IMG/VR virus record: IMGVR_UViG_2706794673_000014
Source of the DNA: a virus
Taxonomy: Duplodnaviria > Heunggongvirae > Uroviricota > Caudoviricetes
DNA length: 39,783 bases
Direction: 5' to 3' (one strand)
Part shown: piece by piece, positions 678-34,473 of the stretch
Numbering within the stretch: position 1 is the first letter of the stretch
Layout: every line of letters begins with the position of its first letter
Position numbers and translations under genes: made by a program
The notes under the pieces: generated by a model
What the model was told of the DNA's origin: nothing
Database searches by the model: none
The model's input: the letters and a program-made list of their open reading frames with translations, nothing else

Positions 678-1415
678 TCATTCACTCTCTTTCAAACCAG
701 TTTTAACTGTTTGTGGTTTTGGGTAAGGCTGGACTTTGAATAGCTTTGTGTTAAGGCGTTTTCTGGCTCTCTTGTCCAGAAACCGGATGTAACGAAACTG
801 ACGGAATTTATGAACACTGGCTCTGTCGATATTAGCCCGCAGATGTTCACCTCGCTGTCCTCCTCGTTTGATTGCATTCTTGCAAATCTCGTGATACCAC
901 TCGCCATCAAGTTCATAGAATGTTGTTTCATGACTGCCTACATAATCAAAATTGCTTGCCTGGTACACGACACCAAGACAGCCACAACGCTCATCTGCAA
1001 ACGACTGAACCCACTGCACCTGCGGATAAAGTTGTCTGATTAGTTTGAGCGCGTAACTGATTGCCCTTGATTCGGAGTTTCTCGGCATACAGTCATGCAG
1101 CCATAACCGGTTAAGCTCCATATATTCGCGGTTCTGCGTGCCAGTTACGACGCGTGCACCATTGTTTGGATTAAGGGCATAACCCCATTGCATTACGCCA
1201 ACCAGCTCCCGTTCTGAAAATATGCCCAGATGAAGGTAGGAATTATTTACGAAACGATGGCTGTAATGTTTATTGACGACGACCAGCCGGGCCAGCCAGC
1301 AACTTATTGTCTCAACCCGTAACTCACGGGAGCCATAACCGACGATATTGTCGTTATAGTGAATAAGTTCAGGCGTGCTGATGATACGGGATGTAACTTG
1401 CTTTCTGTTCCCCAC
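678..1415 (-). CDS. mom: Mom-like DNA modification protein; start uncertain (GTG at 1415 with AAGGA 9 nt upstream proposed; the ORF track extends to 1610)
   Basis: Terminal gene next to attR-like end, overlapped by com 3' end, GATC cluster upstream, ~245 aa; identity inferred from context, not sequence recall. Confidence 0.55.
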
Positions 1416-1569
1416 GACAGGATTTCCTTGTGTATGTGGGGTGCTCTGTGGCGCTCTGAGATGTGATTTGATTGAGGGTTTTACAGCGCGGACATTTAAC
1501 TTCCAGATAACTGAAGCTGGCTCGTGCCAGTAGCTTGTTACAATGTCGGCACCGTATGTTTCGATACAT
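1369..1569 (-). CDS. com: Com zinc-finger translational activator of mom
   Basis: [14 protein letters not shown]...EVKCPRCK...EHPT matches recalled Mu Com (IRCKNCNKLL...EIRCPRCK...EHPT); ATG at 1567-1569 preceded by AGGAGG; stop overlaps proposed mom start region. Confidence 0.8.
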
Positions 1570-1616
1570 GGCCGCATAACCTCCTGCTTTGTTGTTGATA
1601 TCTTTATCACTCAATC

Positions 1617-1702
1617 GATCGACAAAAACGATCGATTTGATTTATTTAATTGATACAACAAATAACACGAAATGTCATTAGCGAAAATTTATGAGTTTGA
1701 TC
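1617..1702. promoter_or_regulatory. GATC cluster (1617-1620, 1630-1633, 1699-1702) and 8-bp inverted repeat ATCGATCG/CGATCGAT upstream of com-mom
   Basis: Read directly; Mu mom promoter is known to be controlled through Dam methylation of three upstream GATC sites (OxyR binding). Confidence 0.45.
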
Positions 1703-1825
1703 ACTAATTTTAAACGGTGCTGTAACGCATAAGTGCTGAATGATTGTACATTTGAATACCGCAAAGCAAACAAATCAACTAATTTATAGAAGTCAATTGG
1801 TTAATTGCCAGCGTAAGAGGCTGCT

Positions 1826-2119
1826 ATGGACAATCATGTAACGACGAGAAATCGAAAAATGATTGAAAATGCGGAAATCTATAATGATTATTTTTCCGAT
1901 TATTCAGATGCCTGCAAATACAGTTCGAGTGCGGGAGAGTTCATATGCTTCAACTTTTTTATTAAATCTTATGTTTTTCCTCCACAGCAAGAAGATGGAG
2001 GTGTGCCACCTCCTGAAATCACTTTGCACCGTATAGCCTCCGTCTCAATGATGGAGCAACAGGCTAATGAGCTGTATAGCATTCTGGGAACGATTCTACA
2101 AAAGCGTGAATCGGACTAA
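1826..2119 (+). CDS. Hypothetical protein, 97 aa, AT-rich, divergent from com-mom
   Basis: ATG at 1826 with AAGAGG 5 nt upstream; local GC far below the phage average; no recognisable motif. Confidence 0.5.
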   Translation: MDNHVTTRNRKMIENAEIYNDYFSDYSDACKYSSSAGEFICFNFFIKSYVFPPQQEDGGVPPPEITLHRIASVSMMEQQANELYSILGTILQKRESD

Positions 2120-2286
2120 TGATACCGGTTCATTTGCCTGCCCGGATGGGGAAGCAGGATTGACTGCTCCATAAGCAGCTATATTTCTGAATACGAAATA
2201 CTATCCAGCGATTACATATGGCTGGATAGCGGCAAAGATGTTTTCATTAGTGTCAAACCGGCAGAGGACACCACCGGTTTGTATTG

Positions 2287-2903: not shown

Positions 2904-4958
2904 TTACGCGTTATTCACTTCCACCACGATACTGTCAATCAGTACCGGGTAAGTCGCATTTTTAGTGATATCGGTCACGCGCAACTTGTCTGCCGTAAAC
3001 GTGCCGACCGGAGACTGCGACAGCATGAATGGTGTCCCGTCCTTACCATCAATGACCGGCGTCACCTCAATACTGTTGTTACCGGCAAAACGGAAGCCCA
3101 GCGTATGCCATTCGTTATTAAATGCGCCGAATGACCCCAGCTTCGTGTTCTGCGCCGTGTTTCCTTTGTGATACATCACGTTAAGGTCTGTGGCATCGCT
3201 CTGTACGTAGAACGATGCCAGCAGGTTATGACCGGCATTTCCTTCCAGAGTAACCCCTTGCGGCAGGGCAGAAACCGGCCAGTACAGCGCCAGTGCGTAC
3301 TGATTAGCCGTAAGCGCGCCATCGAGTTTAAAACGACAACTGACAAGACCACCTTTACCCAGCAGGTCCGCACCATTACCAGCATCATGCTCAAGGTACC
3401 AGGGGGCTCTTCCTGTTTCCTTGGTCAGTTTCATTGCCTTACCCCCGCTGGCTCCGGCATCATCCACGATTTGAGCCTTGCCACCTCCGGCAGCCCAACC
3501 CTGTGGTGTCAACCGTCCTTCAGACTCAGATGCCCGGTAAGCAAATAGCGTACTCATCGTCGTGGTGTCTGCGGGTGGCGTGGACGGTTTTGATGGTGTA
3601 TCAGGTGACGGCTTCTCATCCGGTGGTGTCACGGTCTGCCCACGCATCAGTTCAGCCGTGCGCCCTGCATGGAGCATAATAGCTGAGGCCAGACGGTCTG
3701 AAATGACGCCCCTGCGTGCCCATGAGCTGAAATGGCTGTCACGCTGTGTCGAAACAAAACTGCCCTGGGTTCGGGATGCTGCACCGTAATACCCGACAGC
3801 CACAATATCCGGGTCTTCCGCCGGAGCATTCGTTGGCGTGCTCTGTCCATTCTCATCCGTCAGGAACGGTACAAAGAAAATTTTCTGTGCTTCCTTGCCT
3901 TTGTAGCCACCGTATACTGCCTCATATTTATCGGTGCCAGCGTTTTTCCAGTAATACGTGGTATCACCGCAAATCCACGGCACCGTGGTGGCATTTCCAC
4001 TCACGCACTGCGCAGCAAGCGGAGCCAGGTCAGTTCTGAACTGCTGAACCATGGCCGTGAATAAACTATTATGCTGCTGGCTTCCTGAGGCAAGGTCTGC
4101 CTCTCCCTGCATCCAGACCACAGCCAGAAGTTTGTTTTTCGGGTTTTTCGCCAGCGCGACTTTGGTGCGGCTTACCAGGTCCTGATACAGAGGTTTACCG
4201 GCCCCCCAGCGTGAAGAATCAGCGGAAGCACCGCTGGCCTCACTGAATGAGCCGTCGGCTCCAGTGGTGAATGCTGACCCGCCACGACAACAGGGCACCA
4301 GAAGTATCCCGGCATTCTGTGGGATATAGGGAAGCAGTTTTTTGGCAATATGCAACCCCTGACCGACAGTCCCGTACTGGCCTTTTGCCAGATCAGCTTT
4401 CGGGTGGTTTATCCCGCTCATATCCTGAACATCATGCAGGCAGTGGTCTGCCGGAATGATGTCGTTGTATGTACACGACGTACCGTTGGGCGTTACCGTA
4501 CTGCGGCGTGCCAGTTGCTTAATGCGTGGGTCCGGGCGGTCAAACGAATCCGGTAACGGCAGCCCCTCGCCGTAGGCCATGCCATTTGACTGACCCGCGA
4601 GAATGACAACAAAGTAATATTCCGGCTCTGAACTGCTGCCATTCGTGCTACCGGAAGGCCCGGCGTTATCCGGTGCATTCCAGTCGGAGGGCGTGAGCGT
4701 TCCGGCCACGTCAGATGTGATTGGAATGATGCCAGTCACGCCTGAACTGGTGATTTCTGCACTGGGATTACCGGATACCGGCATTACCCATAATGGCTCT
4801 TTCGTGCTGAAGCGGATCACGCAGTCTGCGAAGGTGATCCCCCCTTTATTACCCGAAGGGCGGAAAGGGCTTTCAATAAATGCCACCGTGCCACCGGCAA
4901 CCTTGACTGAAAACTCTCCGGGCATGGCGGAGAGCATTTTCCACTTGGAGTCTGACAT
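2904..4958 (-). CDS. SGNH-hydrolase sialate O-acetylesterase-like protein (NanS/NanS-p-like), 684 aa, with Pro/Thr linker and C-terminal putative carbohydrate-binding domain
   Basis: Motif YYFVVILAGQSNGMAYGEGLPLPD and downstream blocks (NDIIPADHCLHDVQDMSG, LLVPCCRGGSAFT, HFSSWARRG) match recalled E. coli NanS (YjhS); linker TPPDEKPSPDTPSKPSTPP. Confidence 0.75.
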   Translation of the reverse strand: MSDSKWKMLSAMPGEFSVKVAGGTVAFIESPFRPSGNKGGITFADCVIRFSTKEPLWVMPVSGNPSAEITSSGVTGIIPITSDVAGTLTPSDWNAPDNAGPSGSTNGSSSEPEYYFVVILAGQSNGMAYGEGLPLPDSFDRPDPRIKQLARRSTVTPNGTSCTYNDIIPADHCLHDVQDMSGINHPKADLAKGQYGTVGQGLHIAKKLLPYIPQNAGILLVPCCRGGSAFTTGADGSFSEASGASADSSRWGAGKPLYQDLVSRTKVALAKNPKNKLLAVVWMQGEADLASGSQQHNSLFTAMVQQFRTDLAPLAAQCVSGNATTVPWICGDTTYYWKNAGTDKYEAVYGGYKGKEAQKIFFVPFLTDENGQSTPTNAPAEDPDIVAVGYYGAASRTQGSFVSTQRDSHFSSWARRGVISDRLASAIMLHAGRTAELMRGQTVTPPDEKPSPDTPSKPSTPPADTTTMSTLFAYRASESEGRLTPQGWAAGGGKAQIVDDAGASGGKAMKLTKETGRAPWYLEHDAGNGADLLGKGGLVSCRFKLDGALTANQYALALYWPVSALPQGVTLEGNAGHNLLASFYVQSDATDLNVMYHKGNTAQNTKLGSFGAFNNEWHTLGFRFAGNNSIEVTPVIDGKDGTPFMLSQSPVGTFTADKLRVTDITKNATYPVLIDSIVVEVNNA

Positions 4959-5030
4959 CGTCTTTTCTGCCTGTTTCTGAATTAAACAGAGTCAGAATAG
5001 CGACCGCTGAAAAATATGTGTTTTGCGGAA

Positions 5031-5063
5031 ATTCAAAAAAGCGTCACGGTACTTTTGGTGACG
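5031..5063 (-). terminator. Putative intrinsic terminator just after gin (6-bp GC-rich stem, then TTTTTT on the minus strand)
   Basis: Stem CGTCAC/GTGACG at 5042-5047 and 5058-5063 overlapping gin stop; plus-strand A-run 5035-5040. Confidence 0.45.
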
Positions 5064-5616
5064 GAGCTGGTGAGGCAGGAAAATAACGATAAAGGGTGGA
5101 AAGGCCAATATCAAATATCAGTGCGATTTGTTTACGGGACTCGCCATTAGCCAGCAAACGGGCGATTTGCTCCCGCTCTTTCTCTGTCAGTTTCTGAGGT
5201 CTGCCGCCATGACGCCCCTGAGCACGGGCAGCAGCAAGACCCGCGCGTGTACGTTCAATAATGAGTTCCCGCTCCATTTCCGCCAGCGCGCCCATTATAT
5301 GGAAAAAGAAACGTCCCATGGGAGTGGATGTATCAATATTGTCCGTAATGCTGCGGAAGTTAACGCCGCGTTGCCGGAGTTCTTCTGTTAAAAGGACAAG
5401 GTGCTGCATACTGCGTCCAAGGCGATCCAGTTTCCAGACCAGCAGGGTATCCCCTGGCCGGAGTCGCTTTAATGCGCGTTTAAGTCCGGGACGCTCCCTT
5501 GTCTTACCGCTTATTCTGTCTTCGAAAAACAGCTCACATCCTGCACATTCCAGCGCATTTCTTTGTAGCGCCGTATTCTGGTCATTTGTTGACACCCTGA
5601 TATACCCAATCAGCAT
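5044..5616 (-). CDS. gin: Gin/Hin/Pin-family serine DNA invertase
   Basis: MLIGYIRVSTNDQ...LLVWKLDRLGRSMQHL...GRFFFHIMGALAEMERELIIERT closely matches recalled Mu Gin; sits beside the invertible segment. Confidence 0.93.
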   Translation of the reverse strand: MLIGYIRVSTNDQNTALQRNALECAGCELFFEDRISGKTRERPGLKRALKRLRPGDTLLVWKLDRLGRSMQHLVLLTEELRQRGVNFRSITDNIDTSTPMGRFFFHIMGALAEMERELIIERTRAGLAAARAQGRHGGRPQKLTEKEREQIARLLANGESRKQIALIFDIGLSTLYRYFPASPAPSPKVP

Positions 5617-8101: not shown

Positions 8102-9192
8102 GTGATTTCTCCTACCGTCAGCAGCTCACTGTCTCCCGCCTGAACTGACGTCAGCGGACTGCGCACTTCAAAATCCTCCAGATTTTTCACCCCTGCCACC
8201 GCCCGCCAGAAAGACGACGGCAGAACCAGACCGCCGGGCCGGGATTCGTTATACAACAGGTCGGTCAGCGCCTGTTTTACGGCCGCCTGATTCTCCGGTG
8301 TTTTCGGGATGATCCTGATGCTGAAGGGCACCGGCTTATTGGTCAGTTTAAACACGGTCACCGTCGGCCCCAGAGGCTGTCCGACAGGCTGGCCGGTCGC
8401 CGGATCATCATGACTGCGGATATAATCCGCCACCCGCTGAACATCACCGTCACCGGGGAAAATATCCGGGTTATTATCCTGAACAAACGTTACCCCCACG
8501 CTGCCCGCCTGCGGCCATTCCGGGCGGCACCATGCCCGCGTCACGCCCGGCACTTCACGCGCCCAGCGTTCAAAATCATACTGCGTGCCGNNNNNNNNNN
8601 NNNNNNNNNNNNNNNNNNNNNNNNNNNNNNNNNNNNNNNNNNNNNNNNNNNNNNNNNNNNNNNNNNNNNNNNNNNNNNNNNNNNNNNNNNNNNNNNNNNN
8701 NNNNNNNNNNNNNNNNNNNNNNNNNNNNNNNNNNNNNNNNNNNNNNNNNNNNNNNNNNNNNNNNNNNNNNNNNNNNNNNNNNNNNNNNNNNNNNNNNNNN
8801 NNNNNNNNNNNNNNNNNNNNNNNNNNNNNNNNNNNNNNNNNNNNNNNNTAAACCACGCCATCACTTCGCTGGAGAAGCACACCTTCCTTGATCCCCGCAT
8901 CCGTGGTCAGCATCAGCTGAACCGGCCCGTCCCCCCGAGAGGCAGGCTTACGCATGACGCCCCAGAATGCACAGTGTTTCAGCAGTTCGGCTTCATCGGC
9001 TTCGGTCGGGATGATCTGACGCGCAATCCAGGCCAGATGCTCATGCTCCTGAGCAGATAACCCTGCCTGAGCGTAAGCAATGGCATTCAGGGTGGTTTCA
9101 TTCACACCCGGCTGCGAGCCGGGCAGGCGCTGGCTGATATCCTGCTGTGTCTGCGTGATTAACTGTGCCAGCGGTAAAGGCTGATAAGGCAT
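8092..9192 (-). CDS. Baseplate J-like protein (Mu gp47-like); interrupted by N-run 8591-8848
   Basis: Size and position in baseplate cluster; both flanks of the gap read as one frame. Confidence 0.7.
   Translation of the reverse strand: MPYQPLPLAQLITQTQQDISQRLPGSQPGVNETTLNAIAYAQAGLSAQEHEHLAWIARQIIPTEADEAELLKHCAFWGVMRKPASRGDGPVQLMLTTDAGIKEGVLLQRSDGVVXXXXXXXXXXXXXXXXXXXXXXXXXXXXXXXXXXXXXXXXXXXXXXXXXXXXXXXXXXXXXXXXXXXXXXXXXXXXXXXXXXXXXXXGTQYDFERWAREVPGVTRAWCRPEWPQAGSVGVTFVQDNNPDIFPGDGDVQRVADYIRSHDDPATGQPVGQPLGPTVTVFKLTNKPVPFSIRIIPKTPENQAAVKQALTDLLYNESRPGGLVLPSSFWRAVAGVKNLEDFEVRSPLTSVQAGDSELLTVGEITWL
8591..8848. other. Run of N (unsequenced or masked)
   Basis: Read directly. Confidence 1.
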
Positions 9193-15354: not shown

Positions 15355-15765
15355 TTACTGGACACGGGTACTGGTGGCGCTGGCGAACTTCGCGGAGATA
15401 TCACCACCACCGTCAAGCGAGGCCGGTTCACTGCTCCAGGCCTTCGTCATCATGTGGACTTCACCGGTATCGGCCANNNNNNNNNNNNNNNNNNNNNNNN
15501 NNNNNNNNNNNNNNNNNNNNNNNNNNNNNNNNNNNNNNNNNNNNNNNNNNNNNNNNNNNNNNNNNNNNNNNNNNNNNNNNNNNNNNNNNNNNNNNNNNNN
15601 NNNNNNNNNNNNNNNNNNNNNNNNNNNNNNNNNNNNNNNNNNNNNNNNNNNNNNNNNNNNNNNNNNNNNNNNNNNNNNNNNNNNNNNNNNNNNNNNNNNN
15701 NNNNNNNNNNNNNNNNNNNNNNNNNNNNNNNNNNNNNNNNNNNNNNNNNNNNNNNNNNNNNNCTT
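15355..15765 (-). CDS. Tail tube protein (only C-terminal ~40 aa visible; remainder in N-run 15477-15762)
   Basis: Open frame ending ...GGGDISAKFASATSTRVQ with stop at 15355-15357; located between sheath and chaperone. Confidence 0.4.
   Translation of the reverse strand, partial: KXXXXXXXXXXXXXXXXXXXXXXXXXXXXXXXXXXXXXXXXXXXXXXXXXXXXXXXXXXXXXXXXXXXXXXXXXXXXXXXXXXXXXXXXXXXXXXXXADTGEVHMMTKAWSSEPASLDGGGDISAKFASATSTRVQ
15477..15762. other. Run of N (unsequenced or masked)
   Basis: Read directly. Confidence 1.
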
Positions 15766-15768
15766 ACC

Positions 15769-17280
15769 TCACAAAATGAAACGGATCTGCGCGGCCATGA
15801 AGCGGAACTGGTTAACCAGATCCGGTGTACACATCACATCCAGACGGTTACGNNNNNNNNNNNNNNNNNNNNNNNNNNNNNNNNNNNNNNNNNNNNNNNN
15901 NNNNNNNNNNNNNNNNNNNNNNNNNNNNNNNNNNNNNNNNNNNNNNNNNNNNNNNNNNNNNNNNNNNNNNNNNNNNNNNNNNNNNNNNNNNNNNNNNNNN
16001 NNNNNNNNNNNNNNNNNNNNNNNNNNNNNNNNNNNNNNNNNNNNNNNNNNNNNNNNNNNNNNNNNNNNNNNNNNNNNNNNNNNNNNNNNNNNNNNNNNNN
16101 NNATCCAGATAGCTGGGATCGATTTCGCCGTATGCATTCTGACGGTACATCGTCACCTGACGTTCAATCTGCACCACATCCGCGGCCGCGACGGTCACCG
16201 TGGACATGCCGGTATAAAGCAGGCTGTTTCGCTCTTCCCGCGTCAGACGATCCGGTGCTTCAGGTGCCATACGGGCAGGCAGCGCCAGTGTCTGTAATGG
16301 TCGGGCCGGATCCGTTGACAGGGAGGGCGCACAGACCGCACAAATGGAGGCAGCCCAGACATAATCCGGCTCTGGTGCTTTAGGAATAGAAGTGCAGGTA
16401 AACAGGAAGTCATTACGGGATTCACCAAAACTGGTTGCCGTACCGAAGGTGCCGGTATGCGCCATCCAGACCATACCGTCCGACATTTTTACCGGTCCCC
16501 AGCGTTTCAGCAGTTCATCCGCCAGAATTTTGAGATTTGCCGCATCCTTATAGGGCATGACGATGTAGTTGTACTGACGATTCCCCATCCCTGAGACGCT
16601 ACGGGTGATATCGGGGTTTGTTGCCTTCTGTGTTGGCGCGACGAGCTCCAGCGTAAGACCGGCCGGTGTAGTTTCACCGTCATAATAGTTCACCCGTAAA
16701 TCATGAGCTGAGCATTCACCGATAAAGCGGGCGTTAACCCCCATGCTGCCTTTAAGTCCTTCAGCATTATCACCACTGACTTCAGCTGCGATAGCAGTGA
16801 ATGGCGCATCAGTGTCAGCGTTAATGACCTTNNNNNNNNNNNNNNNNNNNNNNNNNNNNNNNNNNNNNNNNNNNNNNNNNNNNNNNNNNNNNNNNNNNNN
16901 NNNNNNNNNNNNNNNNNNNNNNNNNNNNNNNNNNNNNNNNNNNNNNNNNNNNNNNNNNNNNNNNNNNNNNNNNNNNNNNNNNNNNNNNNNNNNNNNNNNN
17001 NNNNNNNNNNNNNNNNNNNNNNNNNNNNNNNNNNNNNNNNNNNNNNNNNNNNNNNNNNNNNNNNNNNNNNNNNNNNNNNNNCTTGTGAAGCTCGGGTAAT
17101 ACGTACTGGTACATCAAGCTGACCGCGCCCCTGAATGGTAGTGTCTTTCATTGCAGCCTGACCAAACAACAGTACCGCCTGACGCTGTGGTGGAGTGCCG
17201 GTCACGGCCATTGAATTATTGATTTCAATCTGTACCAGCGGAATGCGATTGTTATCGCCGATATAATCAAAGTTAATCAT
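15769..17280 (-). CDS. Contractile tail sheath protein (Mu L-like); interrupted by two N-runs
   Basis: N-terminus MINFDYIGDNNRIPLVQIEINNSMAVTGTPPQRQAVLLFGQ is typical of sheath N-termini; C-terminal frame ends ...AAQIRFIL at 15769; frames differ across gaps. Confidence 0.75.
15853..16102. other. Run of N (unsequenced or masked)
   Basis: Read directly. Confidence 1.
16832..17081. other. Run of N (unsequenced or masked)
   Basis: Read directly. Confidence 1.
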
Positions 17281-21021: not shown

Positions 21022-21198
21022 ACCGGCAGCATAAGCCGGGTATTTTTGGGGCTGGTTTTGCGGGACTTCAGAAAGTGCTGACAGGGGGGGAATGAGAAAG
21101 GCGCTTCACGCAGATTTTAAAGCCCGTTAAATACAGGTTAGAAAATCACGACACGCGCCTGAAGGGGGTAAGGTAATACGTTTGCATACCTTAAACCA

Positions 21199-21672
21199 TT
21201 ACGGCGTTTCTGTGGCCTTTTTAAAGCGTTTTCTGATTTCGTCCATGATCTCCTGTTCTGCCACCTGATCAAAGCCCATATACGGACGTGCGCCAATGGC
21301 CGCCGGTCCCGGTGGCATACCAGGCAGGCCACCCCACTGATGAATGGCTGCATAAGGTTCATTTGATCCAATCAGCGCCCAGGTATCGCCATAATCCGTG
21401 GTCAGGCGGCGGGCCAGATCGCCGTTCAGCGTCAGGATTTTGCCGGGCGTGTATCCCTTACGGGTACGCCACTCACGGTAAGGATCTGACCAGTCATGCC
21501 AGCGTTCACCATCCGGCTCTTTTTCCTGCTCAAACGCCATTTCTGACGATGACAGAAGACTCGCCGCCACACTGCGGGCCAGGTCTTTTCCGCCGCCCAC
21601 AAACTGAAGCCGGGCAAACACTCGCTGGAGACGCGTAACGTCAACAACGACAGCTGCATCAATGGATGACAT
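21199..21672 (-). CDS. Virion morphogenesis protein (Mu G-like)
   Basis: 157-aa ORF between F-like and I-like genes. Confidence 0.7.
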   Translation of the reverse strand: MSSIDAAVVVDVTRLQRVFARLQFVGGGKDLARSVAASLLSSSEMAFEQEKEPDGERWHDWSDPYREWRTRKGYTPGKILTLNGDLARRLTTDYGDTWALIGSNEPYAAIHQWGGLPGMPPGPAAIGARPYMGFDQVAEQEIMDEIRKRFKKATETP

Positions 21673-21793
21673 ATTGCCTCCGCATAAAGGATGAATATAA
21701 AATAAACAGGCGGTCAGTGTACGCTTAACTGGTAAAGTCGGTGCCTGCCTCCGGGTGGATCATGTATGCGGGTTCGACCCCCGCCACTGACCG

Positions 21794-23125
21794 TTAATCA
21801 ATTTGTCCTTCCAGCACCTCAAGCATTCCGCCCCGGATATCCGATTTCAGCTTATCCATATTGATAACCCGGTAAGCATTCACAATCACATCCAGTTTGT
21901 CGGGCTGACGTTTCAGACTGTACGGTGCATTAACGGCAATCTGCACACTGCCATCCTGATTTTCCACGATATACATCAGATTGTTGTGCCGTTTGTCCCA
22001 CAGTACCGCTTTTGGCCTTGCCAGCATTGCCGGTAAGCGCCCGAAGTCCTCCGGCGTCAGAGCGATGCCGTCATTCTGATGTTTCACACTGTCCGCATGG
22101 AGCACATTTTTACCGCTCATCGCCAGCAGGCGGGCCGGTGGCGTTCCCGTCCGGCTTTCCACTGCCTGCGCAATGCTTTCAGTCATAAAGCCCAGCGTGC
22201 GGATATCGTTACCACCTCGCCGGGTCTGCATGATGTTTTTTGCCCAGATGCGGAACGCCAGCTGCCGCTCCGGGCTGTTGTTCATCTCCTGAACCACCAT
22301 TTCCCGTAACGCCGGGCTTTTCACCTCGATCAGTTTGCGGATCAGCGCCTGGTCTGTGCCGAACGCTGCCGAGCCGGGGTTATATGACCAGCCCACATCC
22401 GGTGTCATGGTTCTGGCGCCATCTGAATATGTGGTCACCGGCATTTCTCTGACTTCTCCGGTCTGTTTATCCACGCCAGCCTCAACATTGCGGGTGGAGA
22501 GATGATCCTCACCGGATGAAACGGATAACCCCATTGCATCCAGACGGGCCTGAGACAATGGCCGCACACGGCAGCGGCAGTTCCAGCCATTGGGCGGGTA
22601 GTGTGTTTTCCAGAACGGATCGTCATAGCGGAATACCAGACCGTTAAGGGCGGAATGCGACGGGCGGGTACGGCTGTCCATGACCGCCACATACTGCCAG
22701 AACGGATGCGTGTCCGTGTTGTTCATCATCTGCGTGTAACGCCCGGCATTGTAAGCCACACGGGTGTTCACGTTGTAAATCAGCGCCAGACGACGGGGAC
22801 TGCCCTGCTGCACTTCTTCCGCGTTACCGTCGCTGTCCACCACAATCTGCTTTCCCCACCATCCCAGCTTTTGCAGGCGTGGCGTCAGTGTGCGGATAAA
22901 TTCTTTCTGTGAAATCCCCTCATCAATGGCCCGCTGCACTTCGGCCTGTAATGTGGTTACCACATCCAGCCGTGCCGTTTTTGCTGCCGTGAATGAGCGG
23001 GCATGAACATCCGCGTCTGTTTCGAACCAGTTCCAGCTGATATGCGCCCCTTTGGCGCGGAAGTATGCCACCGTCTCTTTTGAGGGAAGCGTGGCGGCAT
23101 AACCTAAATCAATCCCCTGAGCCAT
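21794..23125 (-). CDS. Head morphogenesis protein (Mu F/gp30-like)
   Basis: 443-aa ORF directly after portal gene. Confidence 0.8.
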   Translation of the reverse strand: MAQGIDLGYAATLPSKETVAYFRAKGAHISWNWFETDADVHARSFTAAKTARLDVVTTLQAEVQRAIDEGISQKEFIRTLTPRLQKLGWWGKQIVVDSDGNAEEVQQGSPRRLALIYNVNTRVAYNAGRYTQMMNNTDTHPFWQYVAVMDSRTRPSHSALNGLVFRYDDPFWKTHYPPNGWNCRCRVRPLSQARLDAMGLSVSSGEDHLSTRNVEAGVDKQTGEVREMPVTTYSDGARTMTPDVGWSYNPGSAAFGTDQALIRKLIEVKSPALREMVVQEMNNSPERQLAFRIWAKNIMQTRRGGNDIRTLGFMTESIAQAVESRTGTPPARLLAMSGKNVLHADSVKHQNDGIALTPEDFGRLPAMLARPKAVLWDKRHNNLMYIVENQDGSVQIAVNAPYSLKRQPDKLDVIVNAYRVINMDKLKSDIRGGMLEVLEGQID

Positions 23126-29195: not shown

Positions 29196-29699
29196 TCATG
29201 GTGTTCTCTGAGTCAGCGTAACCGTGAGGAAAAGGGGGCAGGATTTGCGGAATATCANNNNNNNNNNNNNNNNNNNNNNNNNNNNNNNNNNNNNNNNNNN
29301 NNNNNNNNNNNNNNNNNNNNNNNNNNNNNNNNNNNNNNNNNNNNNNNNNNNNNNNNNNNNNNNNNNNNNNNNNNNNNNNNNNNNNNNNNNNNNNNNNNNN
29401 NNNNNNNNNNNNNNNNNNNNNNNNNNNNNNNNNNNNNNNNNNNNNNNNNNNNNNNNNNNNNNNNNNNNNNNNNNNNNNNNNNNNNNNNNNNNNNNNNNNN
29501 NNNNNNNNNNNNNNNNNNNNNCCGCCTGAGCAGGTTCAATCCCCTGACGGTGCAGTTCAGCACTGATCACATCAACCAGGTCCCGCAGCGTGCCGGGCCA
29601 GTTCTTTTTCAGCTCATCATCAGGAATATCATCCAGACGGTCAATCAGCGCGTGCAGCTGTTCGCTGTCACCAAACATGCTCATCTGTGTTTCAGCCAT
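29196..29699 (-). CDS. Mor/C-family transcription activator; only the N-terminal ~59 aa (29521-29699) are readable, the rest lies in N-run 29258-29520
   Basis: N-terminus MAETQMSMFGDSEQLHALIDRLDDIPDDELKKNWPGTLRDLVDVISAELHRQGIEPAQA resembles recalled Mu Mor; position between gemA and lys. Confidence 0.6.
   Translation of the reverse strand: MAETQMSMFGDSEQLHALIDRLDDIPDDELKKNWPGTLRDLVDVISAELHRQGIEPAQAXXXXXXXXXXXXXXXXXXXXXXXXXXXXXXXXXXXXXXXXXXXXXXXXXXXXXXXXXXXXXXXXXXXXXXXXXXXXXXXXXXXXXXXXXIFRKSCPLFLTVTLTQRTP
29258..29520. other. Run of N (unsequenced or masked)
   Basis: Read directly. Confidence 1.
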
Positions 29700-31881: not shown

Positions 31882-32397
31882 TCACCCCCTGACTCGCTTT
31901 TCAGCAGCATAAAACTCATCAGACAGTATTTCGGTCATTTTCTGTTTTGCGGGTTTTACGCCGCACTGAAGGTAAATCACATCGTCAACGCAGAACCACT
32001 TCACAGGGCCAAACAGGATTGCCGAGAAATCAATACCCAACCAGAACAACAGCGCATCGGTTCTGGCATACGTGACGGGCGAATATTCACGCCACAGACT
32101 GTTCAGTTCATCAGAGGCAACACGCAGGGTTTTAGGGATACGTGATGTGCGCGGTGTGCAGCTCCAGCCATTCGACGCAGTCGGTTTTCGCCATAAGTCG
32201 CGATGAAAAGGATATTTGTCCTCCGTAAAACGCAGTCCCTTAAAGTAAAATCCACTGATACCGGATACAAATACCGACCGGCACGCAACATTCAGCACGG
32301 CCTCAAGGCGTTTTGCCTCATCCTTAACTTTCTGGCAGTCCTGCTGGTATTTTTGCCACGCAGCCAGCGCGGAAGGGTTTGATGTTTTAAAGAACAT
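31882..32397 (-). CDS. Hypothetical early protein, 171 aa
   Basis: ORF in early operon; no motif recognised. Confidence 0.5.
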   Translation of the reverse strand: MFFKTSNPSALAAWQKYQQDCQKVKDEAKRLEAVLNVACRSVFVSGISGFYFKGLRFTEDKYPFHRDLWRKPTASNGWSCTPRTSRIPKTLRVASDELNSLWREYSPVTYARTDALLFWLGIDFSAILFGPVKWFCVDDVIYLQCGVKPAKQKMTEILSDEFYAAEKRVRG

Positions 32398-32930
32398 TAC
32401 GCCACCTCCGCAGATATCCCGGCAGGCGCTGCTGTCCGGTCAACAATCAGGTAGCGCAGAACATGTTCAGTGATATTCCAGCCGCTTAAACCGCAGATAA
32501 TGACGCCCAGGCGTATGTCGATATACGCCATCACAAACTGGGGCACGCCTTCTTTCATGGCCTGCTCATCAACTTCAGCCACCACATAAACGGTTTCACA
32601 GGTCAGAACGCCCTGAGCAAATTCCCACGCCATCGACGGAATATCATGCCCCTCAATCCATGGCAGGGATTTTCTGAAGCCGCACCACTGAACATCATCA
32701 GCCGCAGATTCCTGGCTGCATTTGCGACGAACCGGCTGCACCGGGCGGGGACGCGGAATATCATAAAAACCGTTACATTCCGTCAGCACGCCTGCATCAA
32801 CCGCATCACGCAGAAAATAAACCATGGAGGATGGCGGCATATTCATTTTTTCAGCCAGTACACCGCAGGTCAGGCGGCCATAAATACACAGCCAGTTTTT
32901 AACCCCTTCAAGCACTTTTGCATCAATCAT
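32397..32930 (-). CDS. Hypothetical early protein, 177 aa
   Basis: ORF in early operon directly downstream of gam. Confidence 0.5.
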   Translation of the reverse strand: MIDAKVLEGVKNWLCIYGRLTCGVLAEKMNMPPSSMVYFLRDAVDAGVLTECNGFYDIPRPRPVQPVRRKCSQESAADDVQWCGFRKSLPWIEGHDIPSMAWEFAQGVLTCETVYVVAEVDEQAMKEGVPQFVMAYIDIRLGVIICGLSGWNITEHVLRYLIVDRTAAPAGISAEVA

Positions 32931-33075
32931 GATTTATTTCCCCACCACATTATTAATGACGATATAAACGTATTTCATATTTCTTAACCCTTATTTTCTG
33001 TTTTCAGGCGCAAGCAGTCCCCTGACGCGAGCGCCATAATTAAAATGAAGTGATATTTAATTGATTAATGCGGTG

Positions 33076-33606
33076 TTATTTATTCAGTCCGGCGTCCTGT
33101 TCAAAAGGCTCGACATAAAAACTTTCAGCGCCTTTATTCACCTTGATACCGGCAATGCCTTTCACAGCATCCGGCTCCGCCAGGACGGCTTCCTTGTTCA
33201 CTTCCTCTTTCGTGCGGATGAAACGCTCAAGCCCCATACGGCGCAGCATTTCAATCACACCTTCCACATCACGGCTGACGCTGCATGATGGCGTTCCCAG
33301 CCGCCATGACACCGTTCCGGTGGTCAGATTGGCTGTTTTGGTTTTGCCGCCGTTCGTCAGCTCATCACGGTTGGTTTTGCACCAGTCCTGAATCCCTTTA
33401 AAAAGCACTTTGATTTGCTTTTTAAGATTTTCAATCTGCGGCGTATAACGGGCGGTGATTTCTGCCACTTCGTCATTCATCGCCGTTTCCAGGCGCAGCG
33501 CCTCTCGCTGAATATCTCCCAGGGTGCGGATATCACGGCTGACTTCTTCCCGGGTCTGCGGTGCCGCCTCGGCTGCGGCCTTTAATTTTGTAACGCGTTT
33601 AGCCAT
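33076..33606 (-). CDS. gam: Gam host-nuclease inhibitor (Ku-like DNA end-binding protein)
   Basis: MAKR...IRTLGDIQREALRLETAMNDEVAEIT...WCKTNRDELTNGGKTKTANLTTGTVSWR...FIRTKEEVNKEA closely matches recalled Mu Gam. Confidence 0.92.
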   Translation of the reverse strand: MAKRVTKLKAAAEAAPQTREEVSRDIRTLGDIQREALRLETAMNDEVAEITARYTPQIENLKKQIKVLFKGIQDWCKTNRDELTNGGKTKTANLTTGTVSWRLGTPSCSVSRDVEGVIEMLRRMGLERFIRTKEEVNKEAVLAEPDAVKGIAGIKVNKGAESFYVEPFEQDAGLNK

Positions 33607-33915: not shown

Positions 33916-34473
33916 TTACCCCTGTTGATTAAATTCATTACCGTTAATAACCCCGGAAGCCATGCCTCTGTCTTTCATGAATGCACTGGCTTNNNNNNNN
34001 NNNNNNNNNNNNNNNNNNNNNNNNNNNNNNNNNNNNNNNNNNNNNNNNNNNNNNNNNNNNNNNNNNNNNNNNNNNNNNNNNNNNNNNNNNNNNNNNNNNN
34101 NNNNNNNNNNNNNNNNNNNNNNNNNNNNNNNNNNNNNNNNNNNNNNNNNNNNNNNNNNNNNNNNNNNNNNNNNNNNNNNNNNNNNNNNNNNNNNNNNNNN
34201 NNNNNNNNNNNNNNNNNNNNNNNNNNNNNNNNNNNNNNNNNNNNNNNNNAACCGAATCATGGCATTAAAGGCTTCTTCCTCCGTCACCGCTTCCGGTATC
34301 CCCGGAACCAGTAACTGCTCCTGTTCATCACGTCCATGACGCGCCATAACCTCAATCACATGCCGTACCGTGGCAGGCTTTCCGGCAACTATCGGCAATG
34401 CACCTTCCGGCAGGACGTAACCAAACTCAATAAGACCACTCGACCACGCCCATGCAATGAGATTTTTTTTCAC
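33916..34473 (-). CDS. Hypothetical early protein, interrupted by N-run 33993-34249
   Basis: N-terminal 74 aa readable; remainder within gap. Confidence 0.45.
   Translation of the reverse strand: MKKNLIAWAWSSGLIEFGYVLPEGALPIVAGKPATVRHVIEVMARHGRDEQEQLLVPGIPEAVTEEEAFNAMIRXXXXXXXXXXXXXXXXXXXXXXXXXXXXXXXXXXXXXXXXXXXXXXXXXXXXXXXXXXXXXXXXXXXXXXXXXXXXXXXXXXXXXXXASAFMKDRGMASGVINGNEFNQQG
33993..34249. other. Run of N (unsequenced or masked)
   Basis: Read directly. Confidence 1.

Follow-up and report, generated by a model that had tools for sequence, protein, structure and literature searches.

The 39,783-nt sequence analysed here (IMG/VR record IMGVR_UViG_2706794673_000014, referred to as the window) comprises a complete Mu-like prophage, oriented in reverse. 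Its com and mom genes lie on the minus strand, and the interval upstream of com, positions 1570–1825, is the subject of this study; on the other side of this interval begins a divergent open reading frame of 97 amino acids (ORF97). The product of mom, a DNA adenine modification enzyme, has 78% amino acid identity to Mu Mom by tblastn, in agreement with the RefSeq annotation of identical prophages. The com gene encodes the zinc-ribbon translational activator of mom, in which a ...CPRC motif is seen, and the two genes overlap at the end of com and the start of mom, an arrangement also seen in Mu. Mistimed expression of Mom is lethal, and the Mu mom promoter (Pmom), controlled in several layers by Dam, OxyR, C, Com and Fis, is a textbook case.

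Three GATC sites start at 1617, 1630 and 1699, exactly where an earlier note on this DNA had placed them, and they are the sole GATC sites between 172 and 2846. The inverted repeat reported there upstream of com, ATCGATCG/CGATCGAT, is real and extends to perfect arms of 9 bp, AATCGATCG and CGATCGATT, which hold the two com-proximal GATCs 13 bp apart. The com start codon follows 43 nt after the end of this dyad. The note was also right that the region is AT-rich (GC content 0.305 at 1601–1800 versus 0.45–0.59 in the flanks) and that ORF97 is divergent from com. GATC clustering was rejected as evidence by itself: given the 118 GATC sites of the 39.8 kb, chance alone predicts about 3.1 triplets spanning no more than 86 bp, and two are observed. 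The 13-bp pair occurs only once in the window, against an expectation of 0.33. Since the triplet count is not beyond chance, the case for the dyad rests on homology and conservation, not on counts. A blastn-short search with 1570–1700 against the whole window found no second copy of the dyad.

Near-identical prophages are found at many insertion sites in E. coli chromosomes, and the family is widespread in this species, Shiga toxin-producing and O157 genomes among them. We compared E. coli variants of the control region (compared sequences are given L numbers), among them four, L091–L094, retrieved by blastn independently of the dyad pattern. The com-strand block TATTTGTTGTATCAATTAAAyAAATCrAATCGATCGTTTTTGTCGATCGATT is invariant among them; its upstream part (TATTTGTTGTATCAATTAAATAAATCA), invariant except for two positions, holds a ATCAATTAAAT motif common to Mu. 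On the com side of the dyad follows a segment with a fixed length of 13 nt (GAGTGATAAAGAT in the window), for which eight different sequences were found, and then a second invariant block, ATCAACAACAAAGCAGGAGGTTATGCGGCC, which holds the com Shine-Dalgarno sequence. The com-strand leader ATCA[A/T]CAACAAAGCAGGAGGTTATGCGGCC-ATG is unchanged in all these variants except that one position is A or T, L048 has an insertion of 6 nt (AACAAC), and L041 and L093 carry T in place of C close to the com ATG. The dyad and its flanking blocks are fixed while the neighbouring 13 nt vary.

Homology to the common prophage form runs from inside mom to 1678, stops there and resumes at 2258 (blastn against L093 and L003), delimiting a replaceable cargo cassette. 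The first 125–139 nt of the query (1541–1664/1678) are matched by 233 complete E. coli genomes, and only 18 match the whole of 1540–2290. The third GATC lies beyond this break and reads AATC in the majority prophage variant.

The comparison with the Mu mom upstream region, proposed in the earlier note, reveals homology of the operators: Mu has AAATCGATCGgtaatacAGATCGATT and the window has AAATCGATCGtttttgtCGATCGATT. In a fuller alignment, Mu GACGATCGA-ATCAATTAAAT-CGATCGgtaatacAGATCGATT corresponds to TTTGTTGT-ATCAATTAAAT-aaatcaaat-CGATCGtttttgtCGATCGATT in the window. Both phages share the operator sequences AAATCGATCG-N7-nGATCGATT and ATCAATTAAAT, with the GATC pair 13 bp apart; by this alignment the window GATCs at 1630 and 1617 correspond to sites 2 and 3 of Mu, site 1 is missing from the window, and the GATC at 1699 is unrelated. 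They also share the overlapping com-mom operon, a weak non-consensus promoter and a phage-encoded activator of the C family. Mu Pmom is known for Dam/OxyR control, a weak promoter and the divergent promoters momP1 and momP2 (PMC3378877; PMC4287176).

The geometry is different. The three GATCs of Mu are spaced by 18 and 13 bp, whereas the conserved block of the window has only the 13-bp pair, and nine extra base pairs separate the ATCAATTAAAT motif from the dyad. The distances of the GATCs to the com ATG are 109, 91 and 78 nt in Mu versus 133, 64 and 51 nt in the window. We numbered the Mu start site at position 3747 of L004 from the primer position in PMC3378877, so that Mu coordinates combine our own numbering with later papers; on this numbering the Mu GATCs lie at about -87, -69 and -56, and the C site TTATgccccaATAA and a promoter with a 19-bp spacer lie downstream of them. 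The Mu operator occupies about -87 to -53, upstream of the C site, in contrast to an operator at or over the core promoter in the window. With only 43 nt between the dyad and the com ATG, the window operator has to overlap the core promoter or be located downstream of it, whichever promoter candidate holds. These 43 nt contain no Mu-type C site TTAT-N6-ATAA, for which there is no room; the architecture is not the one that Mu would lead one to expect. The upstream neighbours differ as well, being cargo (the DUF6645 esterase gene, DUF1378, DUF826 and a variable ORF) instead of gin.

The dyad, ATCG-N7-CGAT, is a predicted Dam-sensitive OxyR half-site (consensus ATAG-N7-CTAT). We scored OxyR sites by matches to ATAGnTnnnAnCTAT-N7/16-ATAGnTnnnAnCTAT (20 positions), a crude consensus count. 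Positions 1618–1654 match 13 of the 20 positions of the tetramer consensus, a level reached by three positions in the 39.8 kb, and 1618–1663 match 14 of 20, the single best score in the window. The known OxyR site of Mu gives the same two scores in the same arrangement, and the predicted site coincides with the invariant block.

A closer counterpart is the gtr operator of phage P22, where each experimentally validated OxyR half-site contains two GATCs spaced by 13 bp, those of the promoter-proximal pair lying at -46/-33 (PMC2909390, Broadbent et al. 2010). In the P22 genome the OxyR(A) and OxyR(C) half-sites read TGATCGgtaacaaCGATCA and TGATCGcttgtatCGATCA, and the window reads CGATCGtttttgtCGATCG; all three have the form GATCG-N7-CGATC. 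In both systems a second half-site lies about 16–17 bp away. In gtr the proximal GATC forms the -35 element of the mapped promoter, TCGATC-17-TACACT; in the window it would do so in the promoter layout favoured below, TCGATC-16-TATCAA, in which the window GATCs would lie near -45/-32. The gtr region differs in having two GATC pairs in alternative OxyR sites (AB activating, BC repressing), which yields heritable ON/OFF switching; with one GATC pair in the conserved block, a bistable switch of the gtr type is not evident in the window. A gtr-like second GATC pair or third half-site further upstream was considered and rejected: the GATC at 1699 is a singleton, its spacing is 82 and 69 bp versus 77 and 64 bp in gtr, and the half-site is weak.

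By description the window also resembles agn43 (flu), which has a single repressor-type OxyR site but differs in having three GATCs and in being a chromosomal phase-variable adhesin gene. The agn43 operator lies just downstream of the start site, and so would the operator of the window if com were transcribed from ATGACA-17-TATCAA, upstream of the dyad. At agn43 the one OxyR site acts as a repressor site, and GATC methylation abrogates binding (summarised in PMC2909390).

The reading we favour, and hold to be somewhat likely, is that the interval is composite: 1570–1678 would be the conserved Dam/OxyR promoter-operator of com-mom, and 1679–1825 the start of an unrelated swappable cassette with ORF97. 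The two Dam sites 13 bp apart in the dyad would form one OxyR dimer half-site, and the dyad together with a conserved upstream half-site (1640–1663) would make an operator of tetramer size. By homology to Mu and P22 gtr, OxyR may bind the unmethylated GATCs and block transcription of the toxic mom operon, and full Dam methylation may stop OxyR binding and leave the promoter available. The cassette part holds the third GATC, ORF97 and promoter-like elements of its own. The Dam/OxyR-type control of mom suggested in the earlier note is accordingly retained for the repeat and the two com-proximal GATCs, which are homologous to part of the Mu operator; it is not retained for the third GATC, which lies past the break at 1678/1679 and has no Mu counterpart.

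Conservation was further assessed in an unbiased sample of Com-encoding viral contigs comprising 36 distinct Com N-termini, here called lineages. The 13-bp GATC pair is present in nine of them, those with Com most similar to that of the window. The proximal GATC lies 50–54 nt before the com ATG in eight of the nine and 38 nt before it in the ninth (L147); with eight lineages agreeing closely in this distance, it is Mu that appears to be the exception. The Mu-like 18/13 triplet occurs in two of the nine. The GC-rich, non-enteric lineages among the 36 have no GATC pair or cluster. GATC conservation in related phages, on which the earlier note had staked its proposal, therefore holds for the pair in related enterobacterial phages and fails for the site at 1699. 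L141 and L143, natural variants of one lineage (compared with L117 and L139; ~1070–1200), have lost the three-GATC operator by a clean deletion but kept the leader and the downstream TATCAT, and would be ready-made operator-minus controls.

A different conserved element lies upstream of com in the GC-rich, non-enteric lineages L144, L145, L150, L154, L155, L158, L162–L164, L168–L170 and L174 (~1075–1200). It consists of ...CCAAGGC..., a short stem with a palindromic loop and then ...GCCTAyCA, with compensatory changes in three of four predicted pairs (alignment A4); it may be an activator site of another kind or a structured leader.

The same comparison bears on whether the inverted repeat acts as RNA, either as a plus-strand terminator or insulator against antisense transcription through com or as a leader hairpin of the com mRNA. 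A terminator scan flags 1613–1637 followed by TGATTTATTT on the plus strand, where the tail of the hairpin reads UGAUUUAUUU, and the folding energies computed for the dyad are -11.2 kcal/mol (z = -3.2) for the plus strand and -12.6 kcal/mol for the minus strand. The stem, however, has only 9 bp with four G-C pairs, and there is no upstream plus-strand gene whose transcript needs terminating. Moreover, the GATCs and their 13-bp spacing are kept without pairing of the arms in Mu (ATCGATCG/AGATCGAT) and L007 (ATCGATCG/AGATCAAT); L017 and L018 likewise retain the spacing without pairing, and Symbiopectobacterium and Pantoea prophages keep the 18/13 spacing though their arms no longer pair. Retention of the spacing where the arms do not pair points to recognition at the DNA level, and we regard an RNA role as highly improbable.

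We scored promoters by our own position weight matrix (PWM) scan of the window. The favoured candidate for com has the -35 element TCGATC (1621–1616), which contains the proximal GATC, a 16-bp spacer and the -10 element TATCAA (1600–1595). In this layout the hypervariable 13-mer is read as promoter spacer, and the upstream end of the leader block is part of the -10 hexamer, which is TATCAT (5/6) in L032, L042 and L077. Related lineages have a good -10 (TATCAT, TATACT or TATCAA) 3–4 nt after the dyad, so the position of the operator relative to the promoter differs between lineages. The hexamer AAAGAT (1604–1599), considered as a -10 by analogy with TAAGAT of Mu, was rejected, being in the hypervariable segment and absent from other variants. 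Two other candidates directed toward com and one directed away from it are listed in Table 1.

The phage encodes a single Mor/C-family protein (Pfam Mor, 6.7e-31), whose gene immediately precedes that for lysozyme; it is 40% identical to Mu C and 28% identical to Mor. A shared box of 20 bp, TTyTGAwnTyCCGCAAAwC, followed by TAykCT 22–23 nt further on, lies upstream of the genes for the DUF6645/SASA esterase, protease I and lysozyme. These boxed promoters are probably the late promoters of the single C orthologue of the phage; if so, the nanS-p-like esterase cargo is a late gene. On the com strand a partial match to the box, TTTCGCTAAT, 22 nt before TATCAA (1655–1650), was judged too weak. A -15.3 kcal/mol hairpin after DUF826 argues against simple read-through into com-mom from the esterase promoter.

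The C orthologue raises the alternative that the dyad binds a phage regulator, either the late activator of the C/Mor family or Com, rather than host OxyR, with the GATCs incidental or tuning. Proteins of this family bind dyad-symmetric sites near -35 to -50 (PMC4287176), one C orthologue is encoded by the phage, and no other activator site was detected upstream of com. Yet the dyad and the half-sites do not recur at the other late promoters, and because these share a different box the dyad was rejected as a general late-activator site. The dyad also precedes genes without an adjacent com, namely a GT25 glycosyltransferase gene divergent from a Dam-like methyltransferase gene, and a tail-fibre gene. 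Its form is identical to validated OxyR half-sites, and the homologous sequence of Mu is the OxyR site, not the C site. A phage regulator at the dyad is thus very unlikely in our view.

In the cassette part of the interval, ORF97 is preceded by a good Shine-Dalgarno sequence, and its homologues are found solely in E. coli and Shigella. A homologue with 79% identity in the same slot does not have the internal Met at which RefSeq begins the protein, and so supports the start at 1826, and a ratio of nonsynonymous to synonymous polymorphism (pN/pS) of 0.39 indicates that ORF97 is probably a real gene. It has no match in Pfam, PHROG or PADLOC. The AlphaFold model is of low confidence (mean predicted local distance difference test, pLDDT, 62.5) and consists of a beta-hairpin and a C-terminal helix; a Foldseek search against the Protein Data Bank gave nothing below E = 0.25. 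The box ATTTGAA-TACCGCAAAGCA upstream of ORF97 is the best site outside the training set for the late box in the prophage, on either strand and with one gap allowed (17.1 bits), and ORF97 is probably expressed from this late-type promoter of its own.

In the majority variant the same slot holds a different divergent ORF of 154 amino acids, often frameshifted (L003 7138–7595; L093 844–1308), which matches PHROG 26524 and contains a CxxC...CxxC region at the C-terminus. Only 114 bp separate its start codon from that of com, and it begins 5 nt beyond the block common to this variant and the window; at this distance its promoter must overlap the control region of mom. Just within this ORF are two further GATCs with a spacing of 11 bp.

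The earlier note suggested that methylation-sensitive control is shared by com-mom and ORF97, and a more general form of this proposal is that one Dam/OxyR operator gates com-mom together with a divergent promoter of the cargo slot, like momP1 and momP2. Besides the precedent of divergent promoters at Mu Pmom (PMC4287176; PMC3378877) and the overlap required for the 154-aa ORF, the plus-strand site TTGATA-17-TGTCAT is wholly contained in the conserved block and stops right where the cassette starts, with its -35 inside the predicted OxyR site. Against this, neither form of its -10 in the two variants (TGTCAT, AGTCAT) has the near-invariant A at -11, the variants compared have no conserved momP2-like -10 beside the proximal GATC, and the ORF97 ATG lies 148 nt beyond the site. 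The cargo is replaceable, and most genomes with the control region do not have ORF97. We therefore consider a shared bidirectional operator unlikely. For ORF97 itself no positive evidence of shared control was found: it belongs to a cassette present in ~18 of 233 genomes, its ATG is ~190 bp from the GATC pair, and it has its own late-promoter-like box.

Several observations weigh against the composite reading with a Dam/OxyR operator. We infer the role of OxyR solely from homology and a crude consensus count. Mu site 1 reads TTGT in the window, leaving an operator of two GATCs, not three. Three sigma-70-like candidates are directed toward com, and the favoured -10 is poor (TATCAA, or CATCAA in the commonest variant), falling below the listed hits in the PWM scan. 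There is no late-activator box on the com strand (best score 2.9 bits versus ~32 for training sites), despite the phage-encoded C orthologue. Finally, the late box of ORF97 needs one gap, and its spacing to the -10-like TATAGA is 3–4 nt shorter than in the three training promoters.

If the composite reading is right, a known kind of operator, the Dam/OxyR operator of mom, is kept here in a different geometry: promoter-proximal, with two GATCs and without a Mu-type C site. It would offer a simple system for studying how operator position changes OxyR/Dam logic, and a recombination hotspot for cargo genes lies directly beside it. In annotation, the mom control region should be taken to exclude the third GATC and ORF97.

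The dyad ATCGATCG-N7-CGATCGAT was also found before other genes, often with a third GATC 18–19 bp off (L033 8340–9611; L084 2317–3315; L051 605–1502; L078 224–1029; L056 11445–12979; L043 13135–14085). The genes behind it are com with a C5 cytosine methyltransferase gene, com with an N6/N4 methyltransferase gene, a tail-fibre gene and a DUF4942 gene; one dyad sits between the genes for a Dam-like D12 methyltransferase and a GT25 lipopolysaccharide glycosyltransferase. We speculate that GATCG-N7-CGATC could be a portable Dam/OxyR 'methylation gate' that enterobacterial phages place directly over the core promoters of toxic cargo that modifies DNA, or of cargo that modifies surfaces (mom, com-linked C5 and N6/N4 methyltransferases, the GT25 glycosyltransferase and the tail-fibre gene). 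In the window it would have displaced the Mu-type activator site and left mom governed mainly by methylation state, possibly with heterogeneous prophage expression, and it would also control cargo of the adjacent slot through a divergent promoter. This extended proposal, taken as a whole, seems to us quite unlikely.

Table 1. Features of the com-mom control region, the cargo cassette and the surrounding prophage (window coordinates)
Feature	Position	Strand	Remarks
Prophage right end	~548		Adjoins the 3' end of an IS66-family transposase gene (1–459, its C-terminus)
mom	678–1415	-	DNA adenine modification enzyme; GTG start; Pfam Mom, 1.6e-77
com	1369–1569	-	Translational activator of mom; Pfam Zn_ribbon_Com, 7.5e-13
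Invariant leader block	1570–1599	-	com Shine-Dalgarno AGGAGG at 1580–1585
Hypervariable segment	1600–1612	-	Eight different sequences, all 13 nt, between two invariant blocks
Perfect dyad	1613–1637		Arms 1613–1621 and 1629–1637, 7-bp spacer; GATCs at 1617–1620 and 1630–1633
Conserved upstream block	1638–1664		Second OxyR-like half-sites at 1640–1654 and 1649–1663
Candidate divergent promoter	TTGATA (1650–1655)-17-TGTCAT (1673–1678)	+	Weak, possibly momP2-like; PWM 8.3, top 0.02%; no A at -11
Candidate com promoter (ii)	ATGACA (1678–1673)-17-TATCAA (1655–1650)	-	Weak; overlaps the candidate divergent promoter; PWM 7.1, top 0.05% of window; conserved in both variants; dyad would be at +6 to +30
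Cargo cassette	1679–2257	+	579 bp, replaceable
Candidate com promoter (i)	TTTAAA (1714–1709)-17-TAAATT (1691–1686)	-	PWM 12.0 (window maximum 12.6), in AT-rich DNA; inside cassette
Third GATC	1699–1702		Inside cassette, in the spacer of candidate (i)
Late-promoter-like box	1750–1768	+	58 bp upstream of ORF97 ATG
ORF97	1826–2119	+	Divergent from com; Shine-Dalgarno AAGAGG at 1815–1820
Hairpin and T-run	2164–2178		Terminator-like for ORF97; between convergent ORF97 and DUF826
Hairpin	2201–2229		-15.3 kcal/mol on minus strand; terminator-like for the DUF6645-DUF1378-DUF826 unit
DUF6645/SASA esterase gene	2904–4958	-	Followed on the minus strand by DUF1378, DUF826, com and mom
gin-type recombinase gene	5044–5616	-	
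Late boxes	5019–5038; 21054–21073; ~29241–29260 (partly masked)	-	L031 35361, 19393 and 11206
Repressor gene	38.5–39.0 kb	+	

On the minus strand of the window the transposase A and B genes at 35–38 kb are followed by the structural genes. Near the right end, three TTTGATAC repeats at 567, 589 and 624 resemble right-end transposase-binding sites. Six runs of N mask parts of the window (8591–8848, 15477–15762, 15853–16102, 16832–17081, 29258–29521 and 33993–34249) and cover, among other parts, most of the gene of the C orthologue; for the masked sequence we used L031, a near-identical prophage that is unmasked and in Mu orientation, for which the window coordinate near the right end equals 40399 minus the L031 coordinate. 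A search of 1300–2400 for known RNA families found none, with a single sub-threshold match to IS102. An identical prophage carries a 'tRNA-OTHER' annotation, and ARAGORN found no tRNA at window 21500–21900, the estimated corresponding stretch. The intergenic region 32930–33076, upstream of the gene at 32397–32930, contains ATCAATTAAATA (12/12) and two short AT-rich words common to the mom control block; in AT-rich DNA this may be chance. Between DUF6645 and DUF1378, a strong plus-strand hairpin, GCCGCCGGT...ACCGGCGGC followed by T7 (2861–2900), is terminator-like for plus-strand, antisense transcription.

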